In this document: positions 2,499 to 54,255 of the stretch, one piece after another | Numbering within the stretch: the first letter of the stretch is position 1 | Layout of the letters: each line of letters opens with the position of its first letter | Virus record (IMG/VR): IMGVR_UViG_3300027977_000006 | Direction: 5' to 3' (one strand) | Length of the DNA stretch: 64,000 nucleotides | Source: a virus | Taxonomy: Duplodnaviria; Heunggongvirae; Uroviricota; Caudoviricetes | Position numbers and translations under genes: made by a program | Notes under the pieces: generated by a model | Seen by the model: only the letters and a program-made list of their open reading frames with translations | The model's database searches: none | Told to the model about the DNA's origin: nothing

Positions 2499-3293
2499 AT
2501 GAACAGAGAAGTATACCCAAAAGTTAAAATTATAATTAACGAGTCTATTAAAGAGGCGAAATCGTTTAATGATTCAAAAGTTAGGCCAGAGTATTTGGTT
2601 CTTTCTATCTTGATGGATAATGATAATGAATGTGTTAAGGTACTTAAAGCGTTAAAAGTCAATACTTCAGAACTATATGATAGATTGTCAGACCATCTCA
2701 AAAGAAGTGATATAACCCCAAGAGTTGTTGTTTACCATAAAAAAACTGTTCCGTTTTCAGATGAAACAAAAGCTTTAATAAAGTCTTTGGACGAAGAATG
2801 TGAAAAATTAAATGACAATATGATTGATACAATACACATCATGTTGGCCATTTTAGCTAAAAAGAACAATATAAGTGAAATGTTAAACGAATTTTATGAT
2901 GTTACATACGATAATTTTAAAAATGTTATAAAAAATATGAAAGATGAAACCAACAGTGTATACGAAAACGAAAATATTAATGATGAAAGTGAATCATTTA
3001 AAAAGAAATCAAAGCAAAGTGACAACAAAAGTAAAACACCAGTTTTAGATAACTTCTGTAGAGATGTATCTAAAGCTGTTGAAAAAGGCGAAATAGACCC
3101 AGTAACTGGCCGTTCTGTTCAAATTAAAAGAGTTTCACAAATATTATCCAGAAGGAAAAAAAACAACCCTGTTTTGATTGGTGAACCTGGAGTGGGTAAG
3201 TGTATTTGTTCTGATACTAATATAGTTATTAGAAACGATATAACTGGTGAAGTTATTAAAATTAGTTTAAATGAATTTTTAAATAACAAATAA
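2499..3293 (+). CDS. clpC: ClpC-like AAA+ chaperone, N-terminal part: Clp-N repeats, start of NBD1 through the Walker A motif GEPGVGK, fused to a 30-aa intein N-fragment ([30 protein letters not shown]), ending at a TAA stop
   Basis: Matches ClpC TPxLDxFxRDLT...DPVIGR...[20 protein letters not shown]. Immediately after GK comes Cys plus an intein block A (CxxxDTxI), not the expected Thr. Confidence 0.8.
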
Positions 3294-3715
3294 CAATAAT
3301 AACAATAATAACAATGGAAACATTAAAAAAATTTACAAAAACGTGGAATATTAATAATTTTAGTATTCTTACTGATACTGGTTTTAAAAAAATTGATAAA
3401 TTACATGAAACAATTCTTTATGAAGTATACCATTTAAAATTAGCTGATGGAAAAGAACTTAAATGTGCTGATAATCATATTGTATTTGTTACTGAATATG
3501 ATGAAACTACTTTTGAAGCAGTTGGTTTAACTGAAATATTTGTTAAAGACCTAAAAATAGGTTCGTTCGTTATGGTATCTGATAATAATGGCAATTTAGT
3601 AGAATCTGAGGTTTTAGAAGTAAACAATTTGGGTTATAAAGAAATTATGTATGATTTTCAATTAAATGAAAATTCCAACAGACGTTATTTCACAAATGGA
3701 ATTTTATCACACAAC
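3201..3715 (+). other. Intein inserted in the P-loop of clpC. It is divided by a stop codon (3291-3293) and a -1 frame change into IntN (3201..3290, 30 aa) and IntC (3314..3715, 134 aa). The 23-nt spacer is made of AACAATAAT repeats
   Basis: Begins with Cys1, has DT in block A, and ends with HN followed by a +1 Thr. The insertion sits exactly between GK and T of GEPGVGKT. Confidence 0.75.
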
Positions 3716-5518
3716 ACATCAATTGTTGAAGGTCTGGCCCAACTTATTAAAGATGGTGACGCACCTAGAACACTAATAAACAAAAGAATATTCACGTTAG
3801 ATTTAGCATCAATTGTTGCTGGTACAAAATATCGTGGCCAATTTGAGGAAAGAATGAAAGCTGTTTTGGAAGAGTGCAAAGCAAACCCAGACATAGTTCT
3901 TTTTATTGATGAACTACATACGATTGTTGGAGCTGGAAACGCTTCTGGCTCATTAGATGCTTCAAATATATTTAAACCAGCCTTGGCTCGTGGAGAAATA
4001 CAAATCATTGGTGCCACAACATTGGATGAATATCGTGAGAATATTGAAAAAGATGGAGCACTTACAAGACGTTTTCAACAAGTATTGGTAGAAGAGCCAA
4101 CATTAGAAGAAACCAAAACAATTCTAATGAATATCAAAGAAAAGTATGAAAAACACCATAAAGTAACTTATACTGAAGAAGCAATTGACGAATGTGTTAA
4201 ATTATCAGCTAGATATATCATGGATAGGTCGATGCCAGATAAAGCAATTGATGTTTTGGATGAAGCTGGTGCAACAACAAATGTTGTGTTGGAAAAACCA
4301 GAAAAAATTAAAGAATTAGAAATCAAGAAAAGCCAAATCTTAGAAAAGAAAAAAGAGGTGGTTTTAAAACAAAAGTACGAAGAAGCTGCCAAACTTAGAG
4401 ATGAAGAAAGAAAAATTCTAGAGCAACTTCAATCGGCTATGGATGATTGGAATGCAACTCTAGAGAAAAAAACAACTGTGGTTGGTGTAGAACTAATCTC
4501 TGAAGTGGTTTCAATGATGACTGGTATACCTTTGACAAAAATATCAACACAGGAAAGCAAAAGACTAATGAACTTGGATAAAGAACTTACTGGTAAAGTT
4601 ATAGGACAAGATGCTGCCGTTACTAAAGTCGTAAAAGCTATAAAGCGTAATCGTATCGGTATCAAAAATAAAAATAAACCAGTTGGTTCTTTCATGTTCC
4701 TTGGTTCAAGCGGGGTAGGTAAAACTTTATTAGCTAAATTATTGGCTGAACATGTTTATGGTGATGTTGATGCGCTTGTAAGAATGGATATGTCTGAATA
4801 TATGGAAAAACACTCAGTATCCAGAATGGTTGGTGCGCCTCCAGGTTACGTTGGCTACGAACAAGGTGGTCAACTAACTGAAAAAGTAAGAAGAAAACCA
4901 CACTGCGTAATCTTATTTGATGAAATAGAAAAAGCACATGAAGACGTTTTCAACCTGTTACTTCAATTATTAGATGAAGGTCAACTAACTGATGGTTTAG
5001 GTCGTAAAGTAAACTTTAAAAACGCTCTTATTATCATGACATCAAATATTGGTGTTAAAGAAGTTAATTCTTTTGGAAAGAGCTTAGGGTTTGAAACGGC
5101 TGCGACTATTGTTAATGAAGAAAACAAAGCACGTGAGATAATTGAAAAGGCTTTAAAAAAGAAGTTCAGACCAGAATTCTTAAATCGTATTGATGAGGCT
5201 ATAATATTCAGAGGACTAACAGAAGAAGATATACATAAAATCATATATCTTGAAGTTGAAAGCTTAGAAAAACGTTTGAATGAAATGAACTTCAAATTAA
5301 AAATAAGCAAAGAAGCGGTTGAATACTTGGCTAAACAAGGATATGATGAAGCTTATGGTGCTAGACCATTAGCCAGAGCCATTCAACATTATGTGGAAGA
5401 TGCTGTTGCTGATGAAATTTTAAATGGAAACATAAAAGAAGGTGAAACAATTAGTATAGATTTTATTAAAGAAAAAGAAGCCATAATAATAAAGGGTAGT
5501 AAATCTAAATCTAAATAA
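3314..5518 (+). CDS. clpC: ClpC-like AAA+ chaperone, C-terminal part: a 134-aa intein C-fragment ending NGILSHN, then the extein TSIVEGLAQLI..., the rest of NBD1, a short middle domain and NBD2 (second Walker A GSSGVGKT; sensor and arginine-finger regions)
   Basis: The intein TxxH-like block (KCADNHIV) and the terminal block NGILSHN|T are present. The downstream sequence aligns with ClpC NBD1 and NBD2 (VIGQDAAV...FLGSSGVGKT...GYVGYEQGGQLTE...DEIEKAH...GARPL). Confidence 0.8.
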   Translation: METLKKFTKTWNINNFSILTDTGFKKIDKLHETILYEVYHLKLADGKELKCADNHIVFVTEYDETTFEAVGLTEIFVKDLKIGSFVMVSDNNGNLVESEVLEVNNLGYKEIMYDFQLNENSNRRYFTNGILSHNTSIVEGLAQLIKDGDAPRTLINKRIFTLDLASIVAGTKYRGQFEERMKAVLEECKANPDIVLFIDELHTIVGAGNASGSLDASNIFKPALARGEIQIIGATTLDEYRENIEKDGALTRRFQQVLVEEPTLEETKTILMNIKEKYEKHHKVTYTEEAIDECVKLSARYIMDRSMPDKAIDVLDEAGATTNVVLEKPEKIKELEIKKSQILEKKKEVVLKQKYEEAAKLRDEERKILEQLQSAMDDWNATLEKKTTVVGVELISEVVSMMTGIPLTKISTQESKRLMNLDKELTGKVIGQDAAVTKVVKAIKRNRIGIKNKNKPVGSFMFLGSSGVGKTLLAKLLAEHVYGDVDALVRMDMSEYMEKHSVSRMVGAPPGYVGYEQGGQLTEKVRRKPHCVILFDEIEKAHEDVFNLLLQLLDEGQLTDGLGRKVNFKNALIIMTSNIGVKEVNSFGKSLGFETAATIVNEENKAREIIEKALKKKFRPEFLNRIDEAIIFRGLTEEDIHKIIYLEVESLEKRLNEMNFKLKISKEAVEYLAKQGYDEAYGARPLARAIQHYVEDAVADEILNGNIKEGETISIDFIKEKEAIIIKGSKSKSK

Positions 5519-22007: not shown

Positions 22008-23390
22008 TCAAAATATATTGTCAAGCTCCTCAACCGCATTCACTTGAACAACGTTGTTATTATATTTAATCAAATAGAATTTATCACTCTCTTCAGCCAG
22101 TTCCATCTCTTTGCTAATCATAAAATCTATCAACATCTTATTTACCCTATCATTTAACTCTTTAGGTGCTTCAGCATTATATTTTCCCCTAAACTGAACA
22201 TTCTTTAATACCTTCTTCTCAACATTCCTATACGTTGGAATTCCACCCTCATAACTCTCCTTTACCTGAAAACTCTCAGTTACATGAGATAATTCCAATG
22301 TATAACCGTCAACATGATATATAGCACACTGCCCCTTCTCAACCTTGTTGATATACGTACCAACACAATGATTCTGAATCATACCTTCAGCCAACATATC
22401 TTTGTTGGTAGATAATAAGTTGAACCCAGAATACTCAGCAAAAGCCTTGTAAATAGGACGTATATTCAAATCATACTCCAACTCACATTCCAAGATAATC
22501 CTAGTAATCTCCTTGGCCCATGTATCATGCTCCTCCTTTAATCTCTTTAATCCCCATTTGCAATTAACCTTCCTTCCAAGAGTCCTAGCCATTTTACACG
22601 TATCATAAAAATAAGGTGAATTAATCATCTCATCAGTCAAAAGGTCCACCCCATCCAATGACTTCATAAGCTCCTTCCAATGCTTTACCCCTTTGCCAGA
22701 CTCAGATACCATTTGTTTAAATGTCTTGCTCTCAGCAATCATCATGCCCAACTTGTGATGAACCCCAAGCACTTGCCGTGTCATGTCCTTTAACTTGAAT
22801 AACTCATCCTCAACAACCTTGTTGAATGTTAAACTACGTGAAACCTTGCTCTCATGAACGGTCTTGAACCAATGAAAACGATTGTAAAAATAATCATAAA
22901 TCTTTGACTTTTTTATATTGCCATCATTTTCACCATAAACATAGATGTTCTCATGGTTATTGATGAAAATAGTTAGATTGCCAAATGTTAATGGCTGAAA
23001 ATTCTTGTTCTGGTTAACCCAAAATTTATTTTTCACATATATAATGCTGGCATCCTTCTTCTGAGAACTATATATTTTATTGGTCGTGCTAATCCCAAAA
23101 GAAGTAGTAAAACTACACACCTCAAAATCACCATTATCAAATTCAAATAATACAAGCCGCCTAAACGAAAAATAACCCCTGCCTTTGTTGAAAAACTTCA
23201 CCCTAGCCTTTAATCGGTTCTCCTTGTAAACCCTAAATAATTCATTTACCTCATTGTTGCTGGATTCATACAATACCTTATGACTTGTACAAACACTCTT
23301 CTCACCATCTGCCTTTTTCTTTACCCTCTTCTTGGGCTTGACTTCCTTGATTTCTTTGATAACCCTTGGTTCAGTTAATAACTTTGTCAT
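22008..23390 (-). CDS. hypothetical protein (460 aa), possibly PcfJ-like (EGxxxNHCVGTY…CAIYH)
   Basis: Motif recall only. Confidence 0.4.
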   Translation of the reverse strand: MTKLLTEPRVIKEIKEVKPKKRVKKKADGEKSVCTSHKVLYESSNNEVNELFRVYKENRLKARVKFFNKGRGYFSFRRLVLFEFDNGDFEVCSFTTSFGISTTNKIYSSQKKDASIIYVKNKFWVNQNKNFQPLTFGNLTIFINNHENIYVYGENDGNIKKSKIYDYFYNRFHWFKTVHESKVSRSLTFNKVVEDELFKLKDMTRQVLGVHHKLGMMIAESKTFKQMVSESGKGVKHWKELMKSLDGVDLLTDEMINSPYFYDTCKMARTLGRKVNCKWGLKRLKEEHDTWAKEITRIILECELEYDLNIRPIYKAFAEYSGFNLLSTNKDMLAEGMIQNHCVGTYINKVEKGQCAIYHVDGYTLELSHVTESFQVKESYEGGIPTYRNVEKKVLKNVQFRGKYNAEAPKELNDRVNKMLIDFMISKEMELAEESDKFYLIKYNNNVVQVNAVEELDNIF

Positions 23391-23453
23391 GCTATATGAT
23401 TTAATGTTTTACACAAAGGTATAAAAACTTTTCCAATTCTCCAAATATTTTTC

Positions 23454-23927
23454 CTATCTTTTTTTCTCAGAATAATACTTCATATACGCAAATAAACACT
23501 TGCTCCTTATATCATGCCACTTCTTTTCATTTATCCTTACCCCAAGTAAAATCCCCAATTTATACCCTTCATCCCACGCTTTGAACTCCTCCTCTAAGCT
23601 GGAAACAATATAATCAATCCTTCGCTTATACTTGGATACGTTCTTGTAAAAATGAACCTTTTCAGCATGAGCCAATATTGGCATCTCCCTCTCAAATATA
23701 TTCCAATCCTTCCTTAACTGATGGTGTCCCAGCTCATGCAATAATATGTAAACCTTTATCTCTGTAGTATATTTGGACTCAATCATAATCTCCTTCGGCC
23801 AATTTAATGTGCCATCCGCCCAATTTATATAAGATATACTATCATGGTCAAAATTTATGGAATAACCCTCCTTGTTAGCCCAATGTGTTAAATTCTCTAA
23901 ACTCTTAGTATAGTTATATCTTCCCAT
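23454..23927 (-). CDS. HExxH zinc-metallopeptidase-like protein (ILLHELGHHQL)
   Basis: HExxH motif in a 157-aa protein. Confidence 0.4.
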   Translation of the reverse strand: MGRYNYTKSLENLTHWANKEGYSINFDHDSISYINWADGTLNWPKEIMIESKYTTEIKVYILLHELGHHQLRKDWNIFEREMPILAHAEKVHFYKNVSKYKRRIDYIVSSLEEEFKAWDEGYKLGILLGVRINEKKWHDIRSKCLFAYMKYYSEKKR

Positions 23928-24033
23928 ACCAATAAATATACGAAAATTATATCGTAAAAAATTTTTTATTCTAGTTTTTTCTATACGCTATTTATAAAGA
24001 TATAAACTAAACACCTATTAATAACAATAAACA

Positions 24034-24066
24034 AAAAAACCTAGATAATACTAGGCTTTTTTTATT
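24034..24066 (-). terminator. Rho-independent terminator (CCTAG-ATAATA-CTAGG with A7 / T7 flanks) after 24062..24388
   Basis: Hairpin plus T-run on the minus strand. Confidence 0.5.
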
Positions 24067-24388
24067 TCTTTACATTCTTTATTATTAATTCACCCAATAC
24101 CTCAAGACGACCCATCTCCCTCTGAAACTCAATCTGACCCATATCCATATTAATCTTCTTATACGTCTCCATAAACTCCTTCTTCGCAGACCCCAAATCA
24201 AACTTGCCCTCACCAGCCTTCTTGTAATATGGTAACTTAACCTTGAAGTGATGCCATGTTAATAATGAATAACCACCCTTTTCCTTCGCAGTATCCGCAA
24301 TCTTGCTAGCACCCTTCTCTCTCGTCTTTGCAAACTCATCAAACTTGTCAATAGACTCCCTTAATAAACCTTTTATATATTCTTTCAT
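24062..24388 (-). CDS. hypothetical protein (108 aa)
   Basis: ORF. Confidence 0.5.
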   Translation of the reverse strand: MKEYIKGLLRESIDKFDEFAKTREKGASKIADTAKEKGGYSLLTWHHFKVKLPYYKKAGEGKFDLGSAKKEFMETYKKINMDMGQIEFQREMGRLEVLGELIIKNVKK

Positions 24389-24389
24389 A

Positions 24390-24914
24390 TTATTTATTTA
24401 ATCTCTCTATTTTATTTATAACCCCATTTCCCCATATACAACCACTCGCAACATCCCAACCATAATACCAGTCAATCTTCCTTCTAGCTTCATAAATATA
24501 TGGCACAATCTCAATCCCACCATAATCATTAGCAACTTTACCCCAATCTATATTTGTATATTTCTTATAACCAAAGTTAAAAGGTACACCATATTCCTTG
24601 TCAAATTCAACCAATTCATCATAACCCCTAATAATCTTAATACTAGATTCATTTATGCCAATCTTAAATACATTTTCCGATTCCCATGCTGGCATCTCAC
24701 TCCTAACCCAATCAATCCATGATGACCCTATACCATACCATAAACCCCTAGGCTTAAATCCAACCTCTTGATTACCTATTGGTGTAGACCTAAAGTCTAT
24801 TTTATTATCCTTAGACATTATTAACCTAGATTTGGAATACTCAGTCTTTATAAGCTCATATACATCTGAACCTACCTCCCTTAATACACTATCATATATC
24901 TTACCAATCTTCAT
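24390..24914 (-). CDS. hypothetical protein (174 aa)
   Basis: ORF. Confidence 0.5.
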   Translation of the reverse strand: MKIGKIYDSVLREVGSDVYELIKTEYSKSRLIMSKDNKIDFRSTPIGNQEVGFKPRGLWYGIGSSWIDWVRSEMPAWESENVFKIGINESSIKIIRGYDELVEFDKEYGVPFNFGYKKYTNIDWGKVANDYGGIEIVPYIYEARRKIDWYYGWDVASGCIWGNGVINKIERLNK

Positions 24915-24929
24915 GTTATATAAATATCC

Positions 24930-25090
24930 AAAAAAAATCTGGAAAAAAATTTTTTGAAAAATAGGGGGTTAAAAATTTAAACCGAAAAAATCTGGAAAAA
25001 AATTTTTTGAAAAATAGGGGTTAAAAATTTAAACCGAAAAAATCTGGAAAAAAATTTTTTGAAAAAAGGGGGTGGTTAAAAATCAATTTC
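24930..25090. repeat. Three tandem direct repeats of a ~60-bp unit (AAAAAATCTGGAAAAAAATTTTTTGAAAAATAGGGGGTTAAAAATTTAAACCG); the third copy is diverged or partial
   Basis: Directly visible head-to-tail repeats with no unique spacers between them. Confidence 0.8.
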
Positions 25091-25140
25091 AAAAATTTCC
25101 CAAAAATTTTATTTACAGCATCATGGCCCCTATATAGCAT

Positions 25141-25210
25141 GGCAACGGGGGGGTATATAAGGGGGGTAACGGGGTAGGGGTACGTAGGGGGGTCTGTACG
25201 GGGGGGGGGT
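25141..25210 (+). repeat. G-tract cluster with at least 6 runs of G4-G9 within 70 bp (possible G-quadruplex former), in an otherwise ~30% GC genome
   Basis: GGGGGGG, GGGGGG, GGGG, GGGG, GGGGGG, GGGGGGGGG. Confidence 0.7.
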
Positions 25211-25373
25211 TATATTATTATCATGGTGCAAAGATAGTAAAATTATTCATAAAAACAAACATTTTTTGAAAATATTTTTTATTTGTTAAATAGGCTATTT
25301 TAAGCCGTTTTAAGCTACTTTATTTTATTTTGGTATATTGATATAGGCAAAGGGTTAAACGTGGCTATAAAGC

Positions 25374-25405
25374 AAAAAAACCGCCTTTTTAGGGGCGGTT
25401 TCTTT
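25374..25405 (-). terminator. Rho-independent terminator (AACCGCC…GGCGGTT plus T7 on the minus strand) after 25423..26307
   Basis: Hairpin plus T-run. Confidence 0.55.
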
Positions 25406-25422
25406 TATCGGTTTGGTTTGCC

Positions 25423-26307
25423 TTAGTTTAGTTCGGCAAATACAAGTTCGTGGGCTTTCGTGTTAAGGTCGTTTGCCCTTGCATATAGTATGCTTTCGAT
25501 ATTGCCTTCTGCGAGGTTGTGGGTAGTGTAGCGTGTAACACCTTGCAACAAGCTAAAGAGGTTTGCACCTGTATTTTGCATTTCGATTGCAACGGCTTGG
25601 TTTATGCTGTCTAAAATGTTACGCTTACGAGTGTTAAGGTCGTTGTATTCCTTAACATCATAGCCTGTTAATTCAGTCATAAACTTGTCAATATCGGCTT
25701 GTCTGATTGACTTTAAAGCGGCATTATTAAGAAGTTGCACATGGCTTTCAGTCATAGCAGCAGCCTTAACGATTTCGTTTGTAAAGTAGGCTATTTTGCT
25801 AACATTGCCCTGTGTATTTTTCATAGCAAGGTCAACATCTTTGCGCCAATTTTTCGCACCATTGGCACACCATAGGCGCAAAGAGTAAAATCCTAAAGAC
25901 ATTTTAGTTTTACCATCAAAGCCTGTGCGGAACTCTAAAGAGGTTTCCAACGTATCGCCTACCATAGGGGTTTCGATTTCGTATTTTTTGTAAGGCAAAC
26001 GAAAGGCAATTTTTGAACCGCCATAGTATTCGTTATATGTTAGTTTGGTAAGGTCTAAGTCAATACCGCTATTCAATACGCTGTGTTCAATAGCATCTAA
26101 GAATAGCTGTAAGTTCATAGGCTCAAATTGGCTACCAACAACGCCCAAAGGTTTACCGCCTGTGTGCTTATATACACCAAAGGCTTCGGGGCTATCAAAG
26201 CCTTCAATACCGCTATGTAGCTGTATTTTTTTGGCTTGTAGCACTTGGCTTTTAAGGGTTTCAATGTGGTTTACTTGGGTTTCGATTGTTTCAAAAATGC
26301 TGTTCAT
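25423..26307 (-). CDS. DUF932 (phage/plasmid-like TIGR03299-type) protein
   Basis: GKPLGVVGSQFEPMNLQ and SLRLWCANGA resemble the DUF932 conserved blocks; local GC is clearly higher (~45%). Confidence 0.5.
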   Translation of the reverse strand: MNSIFETIETQVNHIETLKSQVLQAKKIQLHSGIEGFDSPEAFGVYKHTGGKPLGVVGSQFEPMNLQLFLDAIEHSVLNSGIDLDLTKLTYNEYYGGSKIAFRLPYKKYEIETPMVGDTLETSLEFRTGFDGKTKMSLGFYSLRLWCANGAKNWRKDVDLAMKNTQGNVSKIAYFTNEIVKAAAMTESHVQLLNNAALKSIRQADIDKFMTELTGYDVKEYNDLNTRKRNILDSINQAVAIEMQNTGANLFSLLQGVTRYTTHNLAEGNIESILYARANDLNTKAHELVFAELN

Positions 26308-26338
26308 AAGTTTGTTTGTTTTTTAATTGTTAACGATA

Positions 26339-26386
26339 GTGCAAATATCGAAATAACTTTTGAGATTTCCAAATTTTAAGTTACTT
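26339..26386 (-). promoter_or_regulatory. Variant sigma-A promoter cassette (GTGCAAATATCGAAATAAnTTTTGAGATTTCCAAATTTT) for 25423..26307
   Basis: The first of three near-identical ~45-bp copies (also at 26546 and 27197). Confidence 0.55.
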
Positions 26387-26469
26387 TATTTAAAAAAAGT
26401 TTTTGCACATAGTGTTGATAACTTTATTTTGTAGTTTCAATTTTTTTTATTATATTACGCACGTGTGTA

Positions 26470-26538
26470 TGTATAAAAAAAATAAAAACCAGGTTGGAGT
26501 ATACTTTCCGTTCCCTTTTGAAAAACGTAACGTCTTAT
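26470..26538 (-). ncRNA. Candidate small RNA A: a promoter-proximal, ORF-free transcript with the core GUAUACUCCAACCUGG followed by a U-rich tail
   Basis: The promoter copy at 26546-26584 has no ORF downstream; a 16-nt core is shared with the rightward locus at 49719-49734. Confidence 0.3.
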
Positions 26539-26545
26539 TGACAAG

Positions 26546-26584
26546 TGCAAATATCGAAATAATTTTTGAGATTTCCAAATTTTA
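26546..26584 (-). promoter_or_regulatory. Variant sigma-A promoter cassette (copy 2) driving candidate sRNA A
   Basis: Identical to the cassettes at 26339 and 27197. Confidence 0.5.
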
Positions 26585-26605
26585 AATGAATTATTTTAAA
26601 AAAGT

Positions 26606-26636
26606 TTATCCACACTCTTTTTTGAGAGTGTGGATA
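26606..26636. promoter_or_regulatory. Inverted pair of perfect DnaA boxes (TTATCCACA … TGTGGATAA) forming a 12-bp-arm palindrome, just upstream of the promoter cassette
   Basis: Exact DnaA-box consensus on both strands 13 bp apart; degenerate versions at 26414-26422 and 27259-27283. Confidence 0.5.
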
Positions 26637-26650
26637 ACTTTGTGTGTGGT

Positions 26651-27169
26651 TTATTCAGCAAACATTACTTTTGCACCGCAAGTGATTTCTTTTATACCTT
26701 CTAACTTTACAGTTCTAACTATTACATCATTTTCAACACCTTGATTAGTTGCCTTACTTGGTGCAGGTTTAAATTGCTTAATAGTGGTGATTTCTTGCTC
26801 GGTAGCTTCAATACCATTAACGAAGTATTTTAGCGTTTTGGCATTGTTACAAGCGAAAAACAAATATAAGGCAGTTGTATCTTTGCGATTGCAAACGATA
26901 CTACCATTAAAGCCATCGTTTACTTTCTCAAACCAATTTTCTTTTGCTTGAAAATCAGCTTCTTTGCCTTCTTTTTTTAGTCGGTTGTTTACCATGTTGG
27001 TATAGTTAGCATTAAGTAGCATATTATAGCTAACTAACTTTGTTACCTTTGCTTTGGCTAATGGGTTGTTTGTTTTAAGTTGTTTTTCTTCAACTATTGC
27101 AGTCATTTGAGCAAATGTAGCTGAACCGCCATCATTAATAAGAGTTTCGATAATTGTTTGTTTGTTCAT
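26651..27169 (-). CDS. hypothetical protein (172 aa)
   Basis: ORF; elevated GC. Confidence 0.5.
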   Translation of the reverse strand: MNKQTIIETLINDGGSATFAQMTAIVEEKQLKTNNPLAKAKVTKLVSYNMLLNANYTNMVNNRLKKEGKEADFQAKENWFEKVNDGFNGSIVCNRKDTTALYLFFACNNAKTLKYFVNGIEATEQEITTIKQFKPAPSKATNQGVENDVIVRTVKLEGIKEITCGAKVMFAE

Positions 27170-27196
27170 TTTAAAAAAGTTTAATTGTTAACGATA

Positions 27197-27234
27197 GTGC
27201 AAATATCGGAACAATTTTTGAGATTTCCAAATTT
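27197..27234 (-). promoter_or_regulatory. Variant sigma-A promoter cassette (copy 3) for 26651..27169
   Basis: Same ~45-bp sequence. Confidence 0.55.
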
Positions 27235-27465
27235 TAAATGAATTATTTTAAAAATAGTTTATCAACATTTTTTTGTTAATAACTTTGTTTGGTTGTGTGG
27301 GAATTTATTTGTATCTTTGCAATGCTAAAAGAAATAAGTTATGAAAGCAACATTAGTAAAACATTAAAGTAATTTCTTTGGATTTAGAAAAGACAAAATG
27401 TACCACAATGGTACATTAAAAACAACCCTATCATTTGCATTGGGTAAATTCAGATTGTTATTGTA

Positions 27466-27765
27466 TTAATAATACATAGTCAGGTGGCGGAATTGGGTCA
27501 AGCTATGGTAGTGTTGTTTCAGTTGCTCACCAATACGTTCCAATTTAGCTCTTTGCTTATCGGTGCAAGGCTTATCAAAGGACGTAATAGTATCATTTAC
27601 ACATACTCTGCCTAATAGTCCACCACCTAAGTAGTTTTGATAGGCTGCCATTTTTTCACCCTTAAACCCTAAAGTTGTAAGGTCAATTTCAATTCCACCA
27701 CCACGTGAAGATACTTGTAAACGTAGGGTAATTGTTTGAAAGTTAATTTGTTTTGCTTTTGCCAT
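27466..27765 (-). CDS. hypothetical protein (99 aa)
   Basis: ORF; promoter at 27784-27822. Confidence 0.5.
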   Translation of the reverse strand: MAKAKQINFQTITLRLQVSSRGGGIEIDLTTLGFKGEKMAAYQNYLGGGLLGRVCVNDTITSFDKPCTDKQRAKLERIGEQLKQHYHSLTQFRHLTMYY

Positions 27766-27783
27766 TGTTGTTTGTTTTTGTTA

Positions 27784-27822
27784 CTGCAAAGATAAGTAAA
27801 TTAATTTGAAAATTCAAAATTT
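27784..27822 (-). promoter_or_regulatory. Consensus early promoter (CTGCAAAGATA…CAAAATTT on plus)
   Basis: Reverse complement gives -33 TTTG and -7 TATCTTTG. Confidence 0.6.
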
Positions 27823-27977
27823 ACAGCATTTAAATTATCAATTAGCTGTATTACTTTTTTGTACCTCTCTTTTTCATCTTTTGAATCTGTAAGGTCTGAA
27901 AGGTTTTTTAAGTGTTTTTGGTACTGCAAACGGCTAAGATAATCAATAGACCTTAGTTGTGTTTCAATTTGACTCAT
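27801..27977 (-). CDS. hypothetical protein (58 aa; start MSQIETQ; the longer ORF-track version would overlap its own promoter)
   Basis: Promoter at 27997-28034 lies inside the N-terminal extension. Confidence 0.5.
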   Translation of the reverse strand: MSQIETQLRSIDYLSRLQYQKHLKNLSDLTDSKDEKERYKKVIQLIDNLNAVNFEFSN

Positions 27978-27996
27978 TGCTTCTTTGTTTTTGTTA

Positions 27997-28034
27997 CTGC
28001 AAAGATAATAAAGTTTTTGGTGTTTCCAAAATTT
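27997..28034 (-). promoter_or_regulatory. Consensus early promoter
   Basis: CTGCAAAGATAATAAAGTTTTTGGTGTTTCCAAAAT. Confidence 0.6.
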
Positions 28035-48731: not shown

Positions 48732-49502
48732 TTAATTGTTATGTTTAACATCATTTACCCCCTTTTCTGTTTTAATTACAAACCCACTCTCAAAAGCTGC
48801 CTTGTTCTTTTCAGCACCACCTTTGCCTGTCATTTTCTTATACTTCAACCCACATATAACTCCCTTCTTATCCAAAAACCTCAAATCATCCAAATCAGCA
48901 TTTATAACTTCAAACCCTTCAAAGGTTTCGGGTAATTTGTCAAATACCATTGCTACATTTATACCTTGCTTTAGCAACTCAATTGCTTTATCATGATTGG
49001 TTTCACTTCTGCTAAAAGTTAAATGATAATTCTTTGGCAATTCCTTTTCAAACCGCTTATGATTTTTGGTATAGTCATAAAATTGTATATTAGGAAACAA
49101 CTCAAATATATTCTTACCACCCTCAAATACCTTAAACTTTTCCCATACCACATCACTAGTGCCATTAAACCTAAATGTTACAATAGCTTTACCCTCATTC
49201 TTTTTAATAGCCTTTTCAACCTCTTCTCTCAATTGTTTCAAAAAACCCTCTCTATCACTCAAAAAATACTCTGTCTTGTTAACCCTACCTTGCATTACGC
49301 TAGTGTACATTCCACCAAAACCACTACCCACCAAACAACTTTCAGCACAACCCTTACTAGCATGTGGGCACAAATTAATTCCTTTAGAATTTGCCTTGAA
49401 TGGCGACATGTACAATATGTAAGTCATGTAACCTAGCTTTTCTCCTTTGATAGTCTTTGCATTGTTAGTAGTTAACAACGGCTTTCTTTTAATTGCTTGC
49501 AT
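48732..49502 (-). CDS. GP88-family-like phage protein (256 aa)
   Basis: GINLCPHASKGCAESCLVGSGFGGMYTSVMQGRVNKTEYF resembles the Cys-rich N-terminal block of Pfam GP88; promoter at 49526-49562. Confidence 0.4.
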   Translation of the reverse strand: MQAIKRKPLLTTNNAKTIKGEKLGYMTYILYMSPFKANSKGINLCPHASKGCAESCLVGSGFGGMYTSVMQGRVNKTEYFLSDREGFLKQLREEVEKAIKKNEGKAIVTFRFNGTSDVVWEKFKVFEGGKNIFELFPNIQFYDYTKNHKRFEKELPKNYHLTFSRSETNHDKAIELLKQGINVAMVFDKLPETFEGFEVINADLDDLRFLDKKGVICGLKYKKMTGKGGAEKNKAAFESGFVIKTEKGVNDVKHNN

Positions 49503-49635
49503 ATAAATGTTTATTTGATTAATGACTGCAAAGATAGATATTATTTTGAAACTACCAAATTTTATCTCACCTTTTTTAAATTATTTTTTTTAACCCCCTT
49601 TTTATATAATAAGGTATAAAACTTTTTCTGAAATA

Positions 49636-49670
49636 AATTTGGTAATGTCATTTTCTTTTCCTATCTTTGC
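49636..49670 (+). promoter_or_regulatory. Rightward consensus promoter P1 (AAATTTGGTAATGTCA…TATCTTTGC), no ORF downstream
   Basis: Motif match on the plus strand. Confidence 0.55.
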
Positions 49671-49676
49671 TGTGTC

Positions 49677-49750
49677 AAAATTAAATAAGACGGGTTCGAT
49701 ATGAGAATATCGCAGAGGGTATACTCCAACCTGGGCATTATTTTAAAATG
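49677..49750 (+). ncRNA. Candidate small RNA B, a homolog of candidate sRNA A at 26470-26538 (shared AAUAAGACG…GUAUACUCCAACCUGG plus a U-rich tail)
   Basis: Immediately downstream of P1; contains a CGAUAU-GAGAA-UAUCG hairpin; no ORF. Confidence 0.35.
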
Positions 49751-49765
49751 TTAACGAATGTTAAA

Positions 49766-49799
49766 AATTTGGTAATGTCAAAAATCTTTCATACCTTTG
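49766..49799 (+). promoter_or_regulatory. Rightward consensus promoter P2 (AAATTTGGTAATGTCAAAAATCTTTCATACCTTTG)
   Basis: Motif match. Confidence 0.55.
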
Positions 49800-49834
49800 T
49801 GGTTTAACTTAAATTTTATCTATATGATTAGGTA

Positions 49835-49859
49835 TGTTGATAACTTTGTTGATAACTTT
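49835..49859. repeat. Tandem direct repeat GTTGATAACTTT x2 (DnaA-box-like TTGATAAC cores)
   Basis: Seen directly; related TGTTGATAACTTT / TGTGGATAACTTT / TGTTAATAACTTT at 26412, 26626 and 27275. Confidence 0.5.
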
Positions 49860-49867
49860 ACCAAAAT

Positions 49868-49904
49868 AAATTTGGTAATGTCAAAAATCTTTTATACCTT
49901 TGCA
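49868..49904 (+). promoter_or_regulatory. Rightward consensus promoter P3 (AAATTTGGTAATGTCAAAAATCTTTTATACCTTTGCA)
   Basis: Motif match; followed by ~800 bp with no convincing ORF. Confidence 0.55.
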
Positions 49905-50342
49905 TTCACTAACTTAACCCATATTATGCCCTTATGAAAAATTAAAATTACATATCGCAAAAAAATTTAACACACCTTAAATAAAGGTCGTGTTGCACCC
50001 ACTCCGTAAGGATGATGGGTTATTCGTGTTTCTCTACGTGTACTTTAAAAATGTTCTACGTGGAACGCTACACCTATACCCAAAAATTTCAGCCGAAAAA
50101 TCATCGAGAATTTGTGAAAGGTATAATACTTTTAGCAGTTTTTTCATTACTTTTTCATTACTTTTTAGATTATGTTAAATGATACTTTTATGGTGTTTAT
50201 AACCCTCTGGTAATCAATCTCCTATTTTTCAGGTGAAATCTCACCACAATTTCCCACAATTTACCACTTTTTACCAAAAAAACACAAAAAGCCTTAAAAA
50301 AAAGCAAACGTGCGAATGTGGGTACAGTTTTGTGGGGTTTGT

Positions 50343-50360
50343 GTACACAAATGTGTACAT
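50343..50360. repeat. Perfect 18-bp palindrome TGTACACA-AA-TGTGTACA
   Basis: Seen directly. Confidence 0.7.
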
Positions 50361-50400
50361 ATTTAGGGTATATATGAACCTATATATAATATGATATATG

Positions 50401-50577
50401 GGTATTATTTAGGTTATTCATTATTCTTATTTTTGCTTTTAGGCTTATCTTCTGGTGTAGGGATTATTTTGTCCAATTTAGGTATTAGGTATTTCTTTTT
50501 CCATTGTTCGAAGGTTAGGTTTAGGCTGGGGTTTTTTTTAAGAAAGGTTTCATACTGGGTTTTTAGGGTAGACATAA
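50401..50577 (-). CDS. small hypothetical protein (58 aa, MSTLKTQYETFLKKNPSLNLTFEQWKKKYLIPKLDK…), flanked by the two palindromes
   Basis: Hydrophilic protein-like ORF just below the track cutoff; no recognisable promoter. Confidence 0.3.
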
Positions 50578-50631
50578 TATGTATAATATGATAATGTAAT
50601 AGGTGTAGTATGTGTATAGATTTTATAAGTT

Positions 50632-50651
50632 ATGTACACAAATGTGTACAT
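50632..50651. repeat. Perfect 20-bp palindrome ATGTACACA-AA-TGTGTACAT
   Basis: Seen directly. Confidence 0.7.
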
Positions 50652-50707
50652 AGGTTTTAGGTGGATAAGGTAATATTGGATATTTTACTTTAGATTGTTG
50701 TAGCATT

Positions 50708-51160
50708 TTATTCTGATATAAGAATTAATTCTTGATTTGTCAATGCAAAATATATATTCTGTAATTGATGAACATATATTATATCTACCATTGAAAATGC
50801 CCTTAAATCATCAAATGTATTATCTAAAATTGTGTAATTTGCGTTATTTCTTCTAACATCAATTTGTAAATAATAATCATGATTTGGGTCAGTATATGTA
50901 ATATAATCATTATCACCTTTATCTATATTTTGGAATCCAAACTTATATAACCAATCTTCTGTTAATAAAATACCTTCTATGTTCTCAATAAGTCCAAAAT
51001 CTCCACATCTAAATCCAACTTCTTCTTTACAAATTGAAGCGACCAAAGCTATCTCTTGATGGTCATCTCCATTCCAGTTCACCCAATTCCCAATTTTTAA
51101 TTCATTTGCTGTCATCTTATTTCTTTTTAAATTGTTCAAACCATTGTTCAAAAGTATCAT
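50708..51160 (-). CDS. hypothetical protein (150 aa)
   Basis: ORF. Confidence 0.5.
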   Translation of the reverse strand: MILLNNGLNNLKRNKMTANELKIGNWVNWNGDDHQEIALVASICKEEVGFRCGDFGLIENIEGILLTEDWLYKFGFQNIDKGDNDYITYTDPNHDYYLQIDVRRNNANYTILDNTFDDLRAFSMVDIIYVHQLQNIYFALTNQELILISE

Positions 51161-51957: not shown

Positions 51958-52873
51958 ATTTTTTAAATTTTTCGTTATAAATTTCATTGCTTTTTTCTTG
52001 CAGGTAATCTTTTGTGAAGTCATCATCTGCAAATTTTGTTTTGGCAAGTTTCTCATAATAATCTTCAGCACTTTTTAAAGCATATTCAAATCCTTCAAAA
52101 AAACCATTTTCAAAAACTAAAGGTCTTGTTTGTTCTCTATTTTTAATAAATGTTTCTGTCATTTTATCAAATTGACTTTGCTCCATTTCTTTGGCTTGTT
52201 TTTTATACTCATCAATATGTTTTTGTTGCAACGATATTGAAGGTGTTAATTTTTCAATTAACCAATCTACTGCTGTTTGTTTATTTCCCAAAGGTTTATT
52301 TGTAGTTCCTGAAGTTATTTTATCAGCATTAGGATTGCTGAAATCTACATAATGAGAGTCTAACGCACCTTTTAAACTCATATAGTTTGCAGCTCTTTGT
52401 TTAGCTTCTTCTGAAATTGTAGGTTCTTCTGTTGGAATGATTATTTTGTAAGTAGCTTTATTTTGTAAAAATCCATATTTATCCTTATGTGAAAATTCAA
52501 CCTCAACACTCTCACAACTTGGATTCTCAACAAACCAGTTAAGAAACTCATCATCAATAGCTTGTACACCATCAGCAATAAGTTCTTGGTCTGTTGTTAG
52601 GATGATTTTTTTACAATTGTAAAAATGATGCCATTGTTCTTCATTGCTTTTATCAACTTTAATAATTTTACTTTTGAAAGAATTAGTTAAAGCATAACAA
52701 TCTTTAACTTCTTCATCATCAGATGTGATGTACAAATATTGATTTCCAGCATTTACTGTTCTAACAGGAAACTCTTCAAAGTATAACTTATCATTTACTT
52801 TGTAAAGTTTACTTGGCTTATCCGTTGGTAATACGTGTAAATTTTTCATATTATTTGTTTTTAACAATTTCAA
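51947..52873 (-). CDS. hypothetical protein (308 aa) carrying the VDFSNPNADKITSGTTNK motif shared with 834..1226
   Basis: ORF; nucleotide repeat 52297-52355 versus 1078-1135. Confidence 0.55.
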   Translation of the reverse strand: MKLLKTNNMKNLHVLPTDKPSKLYKVNDKLYFEEFPVRTVNAGNQYLYITSDDEEVKDCYALTNSFKSKIIKVDKSNEEQWHHFYNCKKIILTTDQELIADGVQAIDDEFLNWFVENPSCESVEVEFSHKDKYGFLQNKATYKIIIPTEEPTISEEAKQRAANYMSLKGALDSHYVDFSNPNADKITSGTTNKPLGNKQTAVDWLIEKLTPSISLQQKHIDEYKKQAKEMEQSQFDKMTETFIKNREQTRPLVFENGFFEGFEYALKSAEDYYEKLAKTKFADDDFTKDYLQEKSNEIYNEKFKKYGN

Positions 52874-53219
52874 TTAATTTAATTAAACAAGCAAGTTCTG
52901 CTTCTTCGTATGTTTTTGTTAATTTATCATATTTTTTTATCATTTTTAACTCATCATTTGATATGTCATAAATGAAATACGTATGGATATTTACTTGACC
53001 AAATAGATTATAATTCTCTCTAAACCAACGGAATGATTGAGAATAAGTTGGTGCTAATATTCCATCATTCTGTTCAGCCATCCAAGCATCTTCTTGTTTA
53101 GCAACATACATAACATCATACTTACTACCTCTTCCTATCCAAATTCCAAAACAAGGTTCATCAAACCCTAATTCTTTTAAAGCTAATGCTTGTTCGTAAG
53201 GTATAAATTCTTTGTTCAT
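52851..53219 (-). CDS. Paralog family member 1 (122 aa; EFIPYEQALALKELGFDEPC…EEAELACLIKLIEIVKNK)
   Basis: Tandem paralogs. Confidence 0.55.
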   Translation of the reverse strand: MNKEFIPYEQALALKELGFDEPCFGIWIGRGSKYDVMYVAKQEDAWMAEQNDGILAPTYSQSFRWFRENYNLFGQVNIHTYFIYDISNDELKMIKKYDKLTKTYEEAELACLIKLIEIVKNK

Positions 53220-53220
53220 A

Positions 53221-53619
53221 TTATTTTGATTTAACTATTTCAATTAATTTTTTTAAACAAGCAAGTTCTGTTTCTTCGTAGGATTCATAAGAATTATTTG
53301 CTTTAACAATTCTTCCACCTTGTAATATGGTGTAGAAGAAATTAATCATATCACTATTGTATATCCAACTTGATAGGTTATGCTTCTCTCTAAAAAATCT
53401 GAATGCTTGTGAGAATGTTGGCAATCCAATGTTCTCAACTGGTTTGTTATCAATTTTGGCATTCCATTCTTCTTGAATGTTTGTAATTGGACTTCTACCT
53501 TCAGAATAACAATATCTGACATCTTCATCAGATATATTATACCAAGCCCAGCAAGGTTCATCAAATCCAAGTTCTTTTAGCTCTAAAGCTGGTTTGTAAG
53601 GTAAAAATTCTTGTTCCAT
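53221..53619 (-). CDS. Paralog family member 2 (132 aa)
   Basis: EFLPYKPALELKELGFDEPC…ETELACLKKLIEIVKSK. Confidence 0.55.
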   Translation of the reverse strand: MEQEFLPYKPALELKELGFDEPCWAWYNISDEDVRYCYSEGRSPITNIQEEWNAKIDNKPVENIGLPTFSQAFRFFREKHNLSSWIYNSDMINFFYTILQGGRIVKANNSYESYEETELACLKKLIEIVKSK

Positions 53620-53620
53620 A

Positions 53621-54236: not shown

Positions 54237-54255
54237 AACTTTTATTTTTGTTTAG

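Follow-up and report, generated by a model that had tools for sequence, protein, structure and literature searches.

Duplicated promoter cassettes with a candidate operator box, and a conserved single-copy C-run module that is possibly a DnaA-independent origin, in the genome of an uncultivated Caudoviricetes phage

The features described here lie in a stretch of 64,000 nucleotides from an uncultivated Caudoviricetes phage (IMG/VR record IMGVR_UViG_3300027977_000006), which was analysed over its whole length and is called the window below. By position and strand, they are as follows.

24390–24914, minus strand: 174-aa gene (PHROG 8582), immediately downstream of the C-run element.
24915–25113, no strand assigned: array of four ~52-bp units, found by TRF and a repeat search.
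24930–24955, 24985–25008, 25037–25060 and 25091–25110: A/T junctions with TTCYNRGAA-like motifs.
25107–25214, minus strand (sense strand): conserved core of the C-run element, located by a sequence model.
25229–25259, minus strand: predicted strict Bacteroidota-type promoter, TTTG-N19-TATCTTTG, pointing into the C-runs 19 nt downstream.
25288–25322, no strand assigned: three 10-bp-phased repeats GCYTAAAAYR (TRF); the same array lies upstream in relatives.
25378–25405, minus strand: GC-rich intrinsic terminator of the DUF932 gene, AAACCGCCCC..GGCGGTTTTTTT.
25423–26307, minus strand: 294-aa DUF932-like gene (PHROG 1221), below the Pfam cut-off.
26322–26421, minus strand: cassette A, with the predicted promoter (26339–26379) of the DUF932 gene and the box half-site TGTTGATAAC (26413–26422).
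26463–26539, minus strand: small-RNA gene, putatively driven by cassette B.
26528–26637, minus strand: cassette B, with a predicted promoter (26545–26585) and the box palindrome (26606–26637).
26651–27169, minus strand: 172-aa gene, product with a predicted Sm-like/SH3-like beta-barrel (AF2 model, pLDDT 89).
27180–27283, minus strand: cassette C, with the predicted promoter (27197–27237) of the 172-aa gene and an imperfect box pair (27259–27283).
27288–27319, plus strand: predicted strict promoter TTTGG-N19-TATCTTTG, starting 4 nt past the box and divergent from cassette C.
49835–49858, plus strand: two direct box copies (TGTTGATAACTT x2); the −33 element of a plus-strand promoter (49871–49902) follows after 14 nt.

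The initial annotation had described three near-identical promoter cassettes, and this description was borne out: the segments 26339–26379, 26545–26585 and 27197–27237 fit one 41-mer with 0–2 mismatches, where the chance expectation is 0, and they belong to longer copies (26322–26421, 26528–26627 and 27180–27279; repeat family D15) of 65–84% identity. The minus-strand sequence of the cassettes, TTTGG-N19-GATATTTG, has the form of a Bacteroidota-type promoter, that is, a −33 TTTG and a −7 TAnnTTTG about 19–21 nt apart (PMC6847099, PMC2483708). Strict matches to TTTG-N17-22-TAnnTTTG number 61 in the window, each upstream of a gene and 49 of them on the minus strand. Judged by sequence, the three cassettes are minus-strand Bacteroidota-type promoters. 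Each of these duplicated units of ~100 bp joins such a promoter to an upstream 10-bp box, TGTKRATAAC, present singly or as an inverted pair; transcription of the DUF932 gene, of a small RNA and of the 172-aa gene would start from these cassettes, and a box would be shared with the divergent plus-strand promoter. The small-RNA gene consists of variable hairpins, then an invariant GTATACTCCAACCT, then a U-run, and a second copy is found at 49673–49750 on the plus strand.

In cassette B, TTATCCACA at 26606–26614 faces TGTGGATAA at 26629–26637 within the perfect 13-nt arms TTATCCACACTCT and AGAGTGTGGATAA. The exact inverted pair of DnaA boxes noted here previously was thus found, with arms of 13 nt and not 12 bp. 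Both sites that had been taken as degenerate versions of this pair also exist; 26413–26421 is only a single half-site (TGTTGATAA), and 27259–27267 with 27275–27283 forms an imperfect inverted pair. TRF also recovered the tandem repeat that had been seen at 49835–49859, as TGTTGATAACTT x2.1. The motif TTATCHACA occurs 16 times, against 3.9 expected. Family-wide the box is the 10-mer TGTKRATAAC, of which the TTATCCACA palindrome is one variant; it has 149 non-redundant occurrences in 589 kb of related loci, and its central KR positions are most often TA (58), GG (24) or TG (22).

How should this box be read? Given that the arms at 26606 and 26629 match the DnaA consensus TTATNCACA at 9/9 positions, as do boxes in three related loci (L045, L050 and L087), DnaA binding is possible on sequence grounds. 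However, the commonest form, TGTTAATAAC (58/149), violates this consensus: as a 9-mer it is TGTTAATAA, in which A replaces the consensus C. The distance from the box to the −33 TTTGG peaks at 4 nt (17 cases), 14–15 nt (8) and 25–26 nt (10), and in the window 26 nt separate the box from this element in the minus-strand cassettes, against 4 nt in the plus-strand promoter at 27288. Because these distances are helically quantised, the box behaves like an operator or activator site, for which a fixed, helically phased position is the hallmark. Boxes also form direct arrays (four copies with an 18-bp period in L032, two copies at 49835 in the window); in relatives the arms of inverted pairs are often not mutually complementary, and the copy at 27259–27283 lies between divergent promoters, away from gene ends. 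The box is a candidate binding site for a transcription regulator, and the earlier suggestion that the boxes regulate the adjacent promoters is supported in form by the phased spacing, the direct arrays and the palindromes.

The palindrome at 26606–26637 may additionally serve as a terminator hairpin. The stop codon of the 172-aa gene lies 13 nt before it, its predicted hairpin has −21.4 kcal/mol (z = −7.1), and with the T-run that follows on the minus strand it can double as a terminator. The pair at 27259–27283 (−6.7 kcal/mol, 114 nt after another terminator) does not have the character of a terminator, nor was a terminator hairpin found at the single half-site at 26413. Repeated promoters with stem-loops that flank small variable genes, as seen here in three copies, recall the PeSL cassettes of T4-type phages, which are composites of an early promoter and a stem-loop (PMC2839356, PMC4122927) and likewise stand as near-identical promoter-plus-palindrome cassettes of ~100 bp between small early genes. 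Unlike in PeSL cassettes, the promoters here are of the Bacteroidota type, and the box that forms the palindrome arms is conserved in sequence, is found in direct arrays as well and keeps phased distances from −33, which indicates that the palindrome is more than a terminator.

Downstream of the DUF932 gene lies the second assembly of features. TRF detected a tandem repeat at 24932–25073 (period 52, 2.7 copies, 96% matches), and the repeat search (family D17) gave three copies over 24915–25113 with spacings of 53 and 52 bp; a fourth unit, at 25091–25110, is diverged and partly inverted. Three head-to-tail copies had been proposed and are present, with a unit of 52–53 bp in place of the ~60 bp first given. 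Each unit carries an A-tract/T-tract junction and a TTCYNRGAA-like motif, which reads TTTGGGAAA in unit 1 (25091–25110) and, in inverted orientation, TTTCCAGA in units 2–4. A6T7-type tracts occur in all units of 24915–25113, as in AT-rich unwinding elements, and near-identical contigs contain 3 or 2 copies of the unit.

Next to the array, the plus strand carries six G-runs within 25147–25209, arranged as G7-N7-G6-N4-G4-N2-G4-N6-G6-N7-G10; the at least six runs of 4–9 G previously counted in 25141–25210 are there, the longest reaching G10. Runs of at least four G occur 33 times in the 64 kb and cluster only here, and G4Hunter marks 25139–25224 (mean 1.99, maximum 2.52) as the only strong region of the window. 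The cluster is predicted to be G-quadruplex-forming, in that it has at least four G-runs of at least three G with loops of 1–7 nt. Read on the sense strand, 75 nt of this DNA contain 55% C against 8% G, and the six C-runs are spaced 6–17 nt apart. The core comprises these C-runs, a near-invariant GTTACCCCCCTTATATACCCCCCCGT (25166–25141), a single G-run (plus-strand CCCC at 25127–25130) and ATGATGCTGT. It is the sole match in the window to a sequence-only model (72.4 bits, E = 6e-22), which was built from 40 loci and has the window's own copy in its training set. By its sequence, the ensemble of tandem repeats and G-run cluster (24915–25322) is one conserved module of ~400 bp. In the sense (minus-strand) direction it is ordered as the 3 x 10-bp array, a host-type promoter (in this phage), a putatively G4-prone C-run cluster with a near-invariant core of 22–26 nt, the G-run, and finally one to four ~52-bp units that are rich in A/T-tracts and bear palindrome-like motifs.

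The initial annotation had treated repeats, G-runs and boxes as one region and suggested a theta-type origin; on this reading the tandem repeats would be iterons for a Rep protein, and the TTATCCACA pairs would recruit host DnaA. Tandem repeats and AT-rich DNA do exist here, and the palindrome arms of this phage match the DnaA consensus exactly; P1 oriR, pSC101 and RK2 similarly have direct repeats beside AT-rich DNA and DnaA-box matches in the region. Iterons, however, are typically 17–22 bp and lie beside a rep gene, whereas the units here measure 52–53 bp in 3–4 copies, and the DUF932-like, PHROG 8582 and Sm-like-fold neighbours contain no Rep, winged-helix or primase domain, so that an adjacent initiator gene was not found. 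DnaA boxes would be expected within a few hundred bp of an origin, but 24900–25420 contains none; the nearest (26413) is 1.3 kb away across the 294-aa gene, and the boxes as a whole lie 1.3–2.3 kb from the repeats, separated from them by two protein genes and the small-RNA gene. They belong, moreover, to promoters, from which they keep helically phased distances, and across the family the box consensus deviates from TTATNCACA. Cumulative GC skew, which had been proposed as a check, has no inflection in the window and only a 3-kb plateau at 25–28 kb. An iteron/DnaA-box origin is thus extremely improbable, and the cassettes are not part of an origin. Skew in the window simply tracks gene orientation.

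Is the C-run module peculiar to this phage? Pattern scans recovered it in viral and metagenome contigs, and the sequence model sets 78 true loci, in phage contigs from freshwater, marine and soil samples, at 43–82 bits apart from false hits, none of which exceeds 27 bits; each locus, like the window, has one full copy. Sequence comparison indicates that the C-run element is a previously undescribed, single-copy non-coding element of ~80 uncultivated phage contigs; the claim that a special cis-acting site lies at 24.9–25.3 kb is therefore strongly upheld by its conservation in related loci. The same architecture stands upstream of homologues that are only 55–65% identical. The usual location is just downstream of the gene for a small Sm-like-fold protein, and members of the 172-aa protein's family are usually encoded just upstream of the element in relatives. 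No conserved RNA structure was found in the element (0 pairs in 40 sequences), and Rfam gave no match at gathering thresholds in the 64 kb, the best hit in 24800–27500 having E > 1. In this phage the module occupies a border between the 25–50 kb region, with 49 host-type promoters, and the 5–25 kb block, to which TATTTAT-N-ATG gene starts are confined; the start of the 174-aa gene follows this pattern, with ATATTTAT-N8-ATG leading into it.

What might such a module do? We considered that it could act at the RNA level, the C-runs being a very strong Rho-loading (rut) leader and the units, as hairpins with U-tracts, a pause or termination zone. Transcription from the 25229–25259 promoter, or read-through from the early block, would stop there, and would pass to turn on the downstream genes only if a phage protein blocked Rho, possibly the Sm-like neighbour. 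Rof/YaeO is an Sm-like Rho inhibitor (PMC11018626, PMC11018607), and YaeO is the best fold match of the modelled barrel of the 172-aa product, although this match is not Rof-specific. In this phage, the ~75 nt of C-rich, G-poor, unstructured sense strand behind a promoter resemble the ~70–80 nt of a rut site, and secondary structure is not conserved; a strict promoter lies 19 nt upstream here, with a clean promoter 5–26 nt before the first C-run in ~12 other lineages; in 58 of 63 cases the upstream gene and the C-rich strand share one orientation; and the element sits at the border of two transcription regimes. The family as a whole fits less well. A near-invariant stretch of 22 nt, such as this core has, is at odds with the degeneracy of rut sites. 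G-runs just ahead of the C-runs, which would pair with them, are present in 28/61 copies; a terminator-like hairpin lies at most 240 nt upstream in 38/61 copies, and in 17/61 no promoter-like motif follows it. Of 31 downstream genes, 17 share the orientation of the element and 14 are convergent, which leaves nothing to gate in the latter cases. Finally, the unit motif is found in both orientations, and the element is single-copy, unlike a general terminator type. An RNA-level gate is, in our estimation, unlikely.

We infer instead that the module works at the DNA level, as a protein assembly site, because RNA structure is not conserved, the unit motifs occur in both orientations (the 10-bp array, too, is inverted between clades) and many copies stand behind a terminator. 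Against this reading, the co-orientation with the upstream gene and a promoter that points into a C-rich, G-poor region are both as expected of an RNA-level Rho-loading site. Our best guess for a single function, held with modest confidence, is a DnaA-independent origin, in which a GC cluster and AT-rich unwinding repeats would be activated by adjacent transcription, and which would stand where the early block with its host-type transcription gives way to a gene block of another organisation. The promoters before the C-runs in ~12 lineages fit transcription-activated origins. The primary origin of T7 consists of tandem promoters and an AT-rich segment, and T4 oriF and oriG of a middle promoter and a downstream unwinding element; here, too, a promoter points into non-coding DNA with AT-rich repeats at its far end, between early genes and the next gene block. 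The present element differs in that a C/G-run cluster with a near-invariant core separates the promoter from the AT-rich part and that the promoter is found in only a minority of relatives. In yeast mitochondrial ori/rep and the CSB of vertebrate mtDNA, GC clusters in AT-rich DNA lie by a promoter that primes replication. Short G/C clusters, some mutually pairable, with G-quadruplex potential and an adjacent promoter are shared with these systems in architecture only, there being no sequence relationship, and the G-rich strand here is the template and not the RNA-like strand. C-rich RNA on a G-rich template is an unfavourable orientation for a stable hybrid, and the minus-strand promoter would thus be poorly suited to forming an R-loop primer. 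It also counts against an origin that no polymerase, helicase, primase or initiator gene was recognised beside the element and that GC skew has no inflection at 25 kb, though skew follows gene orientation.

Other transactions of DNA were weighed in the same light, namely a T5 iss-like injection stop or early-region boundary, or a packaging (pac/cos-like) site, where translocation or cleavage of the DNA would be halted or steered by structure-prone G/C runs and by repeats with bound proteins. The module, which borders the early, host-transcribed block, is a complex non-coding array in single copy that combines direct repeats with inverted motifs and palindromes. The T5 iss region is similarly a large untranslated region by early genes, in which numerous repeats, inverted repeats and palindromes are described along with 8 DnaA boxes (bioRxiv 10.1101/866236). 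DnaA-box-like 9-mers with no assumed origin function are found nearby in both phages; those of T5 lie within the repeat region and near a genome end, whereas here they belong to promoter cassettes apart from the repeats. Of the related metagenome contigs, fourteen stop 25–27 nt after the 22-nt search pattern, 1–3 nt past the G-run; one more (L062) stops 15 nt after the pattern, and two begin ~104 nt before it. However, L060, a false-positive contig unrelated to these, breaks off at this offset too, which suggests that homopolymer runs gave rise to an artefact of sequencing or assembly. Many long contigs, among them the 300-kb source contig, continue through the element, near-identical contigs of this phage break elsewhere, and no terminase gene was found near the element. 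We consider a site of this kind quite unlikely.

A stand-alone C-rich non-coding RNA, possibly acting with the Sm-like neighbour as a host-factor sponge or base-pairing with G-rich targets, would account for L018, L021, L023 and L043, in which a box-plus-promoter module points into the C-runs and a single unit separates these from a convergent 207-aa gene, implying a transcript with no coding target. Promoters directly before the C-runs elsewhere and linkage to the Sm-like-fold gene agree with such an RNA. Yet most copies have no recognisable promoter and many follow a terminator, neither a conserved structure nor a defined 3′ end is seen, and motifs in both orientations point to recognition of double-stranded DNA; such an RNA seems to us very unlikely.

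Taken as a whole, promoter–operator cassettes at 26.3–27.3 kb together with a conserved, single-copy, cis-acting module at 24.92–25.32 kb, the latter most likely a DnaA-independent origin, form an account that we put at somewhat short of an even chance. More speculatively, and with doubt prevailing, the C-run element and its linked Sm-like-fold protein might constitute a previously undescribed module of large Bacteroidota phages, which would be either a new type of origin with a G-quadruplex/i-motif core, or a device that captures or disarms Rho by means of a 'perfect' rut and a Rof-like protein.

What kind of site does this region contain? We have fairly high confidence, from comparison with related sequences, that the module at 24.92-25.32 kb is a conserved cis-acting DNA site, and high confidence that the features at 26.3-27.3 kb are promoter-operator cassettes and no part of an origin. 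The main features are as follows.

Features of the window discussed here
24390-24914, minus strand, gene for a 174-aa protein
24915-25113, three in-register tandem units
25091-25110, fourth, diverged unit
25107-25214, minus strand, core of the C-run element
25147-25209, G-run cluster (C-runs on the minus strand)
25229-25259, strict promoter firing into the C-runs
25423-26307, minus strand, DUF932-like gene
26413-26421, single box half-site
26463-26539, minus strand, small-RNA gene
26606-26637, inverted box pair
26651-27169, minus strand, gene for a 172-aa protein
27259-27283, imperfect box pair
27288-27319, plus strand, strict promoter
49673-49750, plus strand, second small-RNA gene
49835, direct box pair

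The tandem repeat of the initial annotation is present, but its unit is not ~60 bp: the period is 52-53 bp, with 2.7 copies reported by TRF at 24932-25073. The G-run cluster was recovered as G7, G6, G4, G4, G6 and G10; it is the sole cluster among the window's 33 runs of G>=4 and the sole strongly quadruplex-prone stretch. The suggested comparison of repeat copy number was made among near-identical genomes from other samples, in which the 52-bp unit occurs three times (the window and L006) or twice (L001, L002 and L005), and the longest C-run is 10 C here versus 12 C in L001. The same architecture is found upstream of homologues of the 174-aa protein that are only 55-65% identical, and core pattern scans located the element in lake, ocean and soil sequences (10 viral and ~62 metagenome contigs). 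With a sequence-only model trained on 40 cores, true loci (n=78) scored 43-82 bits and false matches no more than 27 bits; the window has a single copy by this model (72.4 bits), and each related locus has one full copy. In the lineage of L018, L021 and L023, the full element is followed, ~830 nt downstream, by a second, partial core copy (L018 4525-4577; 27 bits over model positions 64-117).

Parts of the C-run element, in order along the sense (minus) strand
Part 1: GCYTAAAAYR, three copies phased by 10 bp (25288-25322), inverted in the marine clade
Part 2: several C-runs
Part 3: near-invariant GTWACCCCNCTTAYATANCCCCCCGT
Part 4: variable, 10-14 nt
Part 5: ATAGGGGG
Part 6: ATGATGNTGT
Part 7: AAAATTTTTYTGGGAATTTTT
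Part 8: 0-3 more units of ~52 bp, every one containing an A6T7 junction, a TTCYNRGAA-like motif and a short GC palindrome, frequently GGGGTACCCC

The window has a G+C content of ~30% and carries dense small genes, mostly on the minus strand. The few annotatable ones are phage- or mobile-element-like (GP88, tyrosine recombinase, SprT-like, PcfJ-like and a ClpB-like ATPase). The last, a double AAA+ protein (3314-5518, plus strand), has weak Hint/intein-splicing matches near its N-terminus, so that an intein is possible, and the gene just before it (2499-3293) encodes Clp_N repeats. Three paralogous genes of ~125-130 aa stand in tandem at 52842-54055 (53621-54004, 53221-53619 and 52851-53219), with DNA repeats 64-86% identical and spaced 370-420 bp, and ARAGORN reports a tRNA-like gene at 54255-54327 (minus strand) with an undetermined two-base anticodon (tRNA-???). 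A DUF932-like protein of identical sequence is encoded on 23 metagenome contigs of up to 300,480 bp, and IMG/VR viral contigs of 40-170 kb carry relatives of neighbouring genes. Neither region 24000-28000 (megablast) nor the DUF932 protein (tblastn) matched any of 50,697 phage records, which appear to include no close cultured phage; the 174-aa protein matched actinophage hypothetical proteins only, and single-protein searches of viral contigs found no related loci. Scanning genome contigs did not identify the host, because the sole match was false. The motif TTTG-N19-TAnnTTTG, which is the Bacteroidota promoter consensus (PMC6847099, PMC2483708), precedes nearly all genes between 25 and 50 kb; its strict form occurs 61 times in the window, including 49 times on the minus strand. 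From this promoter type we infer that the source is a large phage of a Bacteroidota host.

Does the element act as RNA or as DNA? Several observations count for RNA. First, the strict promoter of this phage fires into C-runs lying 19 nt downstream, and a clean -7 box precedes the first C-run by 5-26 nt in ~12 other lineages. Second, C makes up 55% and G 8% of the sense strand, and the absence of conserved pairing in the core (0 pairs in RNAalifold) was counted in the same direction. Third, the upstream gene runs in the direction of the C-rich strand in 58 of 63 cases. Against RNA, a terminator-like hairpin with a T-run lies within 240 nt upstream in 38 of 61 copies, 17 of which lack a promoter-like motif after the hairpin; G-runs that would sequester the C-runs lie immediately upstream in 28 of 61; and in 14 of 31 cases a convergent gene comes next. 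Moreover, the unit motif occurs in both orientations, as units 2-4 show against unit 1 within the window itself, clades differ in the direction of the 10-bp array, and the element is unique per genome segment rather than a terminator type that recurs. Linkage explains the orientation bias: the element travels with one upstream gene, usually that for a 172-200-aa protein (HMM match in at least 20 loci, with more distant relatives elsewhere) or the DUF932 gene. We therefore favour a DNA-level site for protein assembly and regard a functional C-rich RNA as improbable; a Rho-loading gate with a Rof-like partner is somewhat less so, though still unlikely. For the 172-aa family, Pfam and PHROG gave no match, a PDB sequence search only chance nanobody matches, and Foldseek against the PDB nothing below E = 0.1.

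Taking the module as a DNA-level site, we tentatively consider a DnaA-independent replication origin to be its most likely single function. In this model a structure or boundary would be set by the GC clusters, protein binding and unwinding would fall to the phased AT-rich units, and transcription alongside would assist activation. The T7 primary origin, T4 oriF/oriG and the mitochondrial ori/CSB regions work in such a manner. The iteron/DnaA theta origin originally proposed is very improbable: the boxes at 26.3-27.3 kb belong to promoter-operator cassettes outside any origin, and the cumulative GC skew shows a local plateau only, tracking gene orientation elsewhere.

An injection-stop or packaging site, modelled on the T5 iss region (bioRxiv 10.1101/866236), is a rather improbable alternative, to which contig ends near the G-run are relevant. 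Fourteen related metagenome contigs from several assembly pipelines (L034, L036, L039, L043, L044, L050, L063, L067, L068, L073, L074, L079, L085 and L095) stop 25-27 nt beyond the 22-nt search pattern, which places their ends 1-3 nt past the G-run, and a fifteenth, L062, stops 15 nt beyond the pattern. Such ends may mark a physical terminus of the DNA, but an artefact of sequencing or assembly at homopolymers is at least as likely, because an unrelated false-positive contig (L060) has the same end offset and contigs of this phage itself break at other places. L037 and L042 begin ~104 nt ahead of the pattern; the sum 47 + 103 = 150 equals a read length in common use.

Alignments of the element also led us to reject several other ideas: a leader peptide from the conserved ATGATG (frames are not conserved; the window reads MML*), a T7-like promoter ending in TATAGGG (the -12 to -8 equivalent varies), a sigma-54 promoter (wrong GG/GC spacing), an ECF-sigma promoter of the form GTAAC..CGT (half the family has GTTAC), a Chi-like protection site (wrong orientation), and a helix of CCCCTTAYATA with TATAGGGG (without compensatory changes). 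Phase variation was rejected likewise, because the poly-C tract lies downstream of the -7 box and its length cannot alter promoter spacing.

The module also occupies a distinctive position. Host-type promoters number 49 in 25-50 kb versus 10 in 0-25 kb, and gene starts of the form TATTTAT-N3-12-ATG are confined to 5-25 kb (5551, 14411, 15410, 16784, 20051, 23938 and 24926), with none in 25-64 kb; the 174-aa gene, right after the element, is among these seven. Such starts suggest that the phage has a second promoter or initiation signal of its own, nearly leaderless, and because both signals differ across the element, it marks the border between two transcription regimes. Base composition changes sharply between adjacent minus-strand genes (22008-24914 versus 25423-27169), with a GC skew of -0.38 to -0.54 to the left, where the coding strand is nearly C-free, and of ~0 to +0.17 to the right.

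The three near-identical promoter cassettes described initially were confirmed as minus-strand promoters driving, in order, the 172-aa gene, the ORF-less small RNA and the DUF932 gene. Their inverted box pair is likewise real, with perfect 13-nt arms containing TTATCCACA / TGTGGATAA, as are the degenerate half-site and imperfect pair and the distant tandem of two TGTTGATAACTT. The palindrome lies 13 nt past the stop codon of the 172-aa gene and can probably terminate transcription, because a stable fold (-21.4 kcal/mol) is followed by a U-tract. The role of such boxes must go beyond termination. The pair at 27259-27283 is weak (-6.7 kcal/mol), lies 114 nt past another terminator and stands between divergent promoters, cassette C and the plus-strand promoter. 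In 589 kb of related loci, the box is a sequence-conserved 10-mer, TGTKRATAAC (n=149 non-redundant copies), which forms inverted pairs with 6-16-nt spacers and often non-complementary arms, as well as direct arrays (four copies at an 18-bp period in L032; two at 12 bp at 49835). It stands at quantised distances from the -33 TTTGG (4, 14-15 and 25-26 nt), in steps of one helical turn. The box thus behaves like a site bound by a protein that has to face RNA polymerase. This promoter-phased spacing fits the earlier alternative that the boxes regulate adjacent promoters. The boxes include TGTGGATAAC and TGTTAATAAC; the latter, the commonest variant, breaks the DnaA consensus TTATNCACA, and where this phage matches DnaA exactly, it has the family motif in its "GG" form. 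DnaA may bind the boxes, although no finding requires it. As promoter-plus-palindrome modules that recur among small early genes, the cassettes recall those termed PeSL in T4-type phages (PMC2839356, PMC4122927).

The small-RNA genes (~65-75 nt) occur in several copies per genome, each with its own Bacteroidota-type promoter, and combine one or two variable-sequence hairpins, an invariant GTATACTCCRACCTAC and a U-run. Related phage loci contain at least 23 distinct homologues (e.g., L007 1500-1569; L020 3417-3483 and 5960-6031; three copies in L051); their variable hairpins misalign, and Rfam has no match. The second copy lies in a 1.2-kb stretch (49500-50710) without an ORF of at least 90 aa, together with three tandem plus-strand promoters (49638, 49768 and 49871), the direct box pair, two copies of the palindrome TGTACACAAATGTGTACA (~50341-50360 and ~50635-50652) and a local turn of the GC skew to positive.

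The functional class of the C-run element, either an origin or a regulatory site, is probably known; its architecture and wide conservation appear to be new. It had no Rfam match at gathering or E-value thresholds, a literature search on motifs and C-rich elements in jumbo or Bacteroidota phages returned nothing relevant, and neither the element nor the 10-bp box nor the small RNA was found described in any Rfam family, paper or annotated phage record.

Almost no origins, packaging sites or regulatory switches have, to our knowledge, been mapped in large uncultivated phages. Here, a ~400-bp non-coding module, always single-copy and usually tied to one small protein, recurs in phage contigs from freshwater, the sea and soil, and its 22-nt core is conserved more strongly than the proteins around it. 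It offers experimenters a short, testable DNA fragment with a candidate partner protein, and a marker sequence by which this phage group can be recognised in metagenomes. The boxes provide a cautionary case, in that a DnaA-box consensus in a perfect inverted pair can be a lineage-specific variant of another promoter-associated motif. Together with the multi-copy small RNA, the promoter-linked 10-bp box gives handles on early-gene control in Bacteroidota phages.
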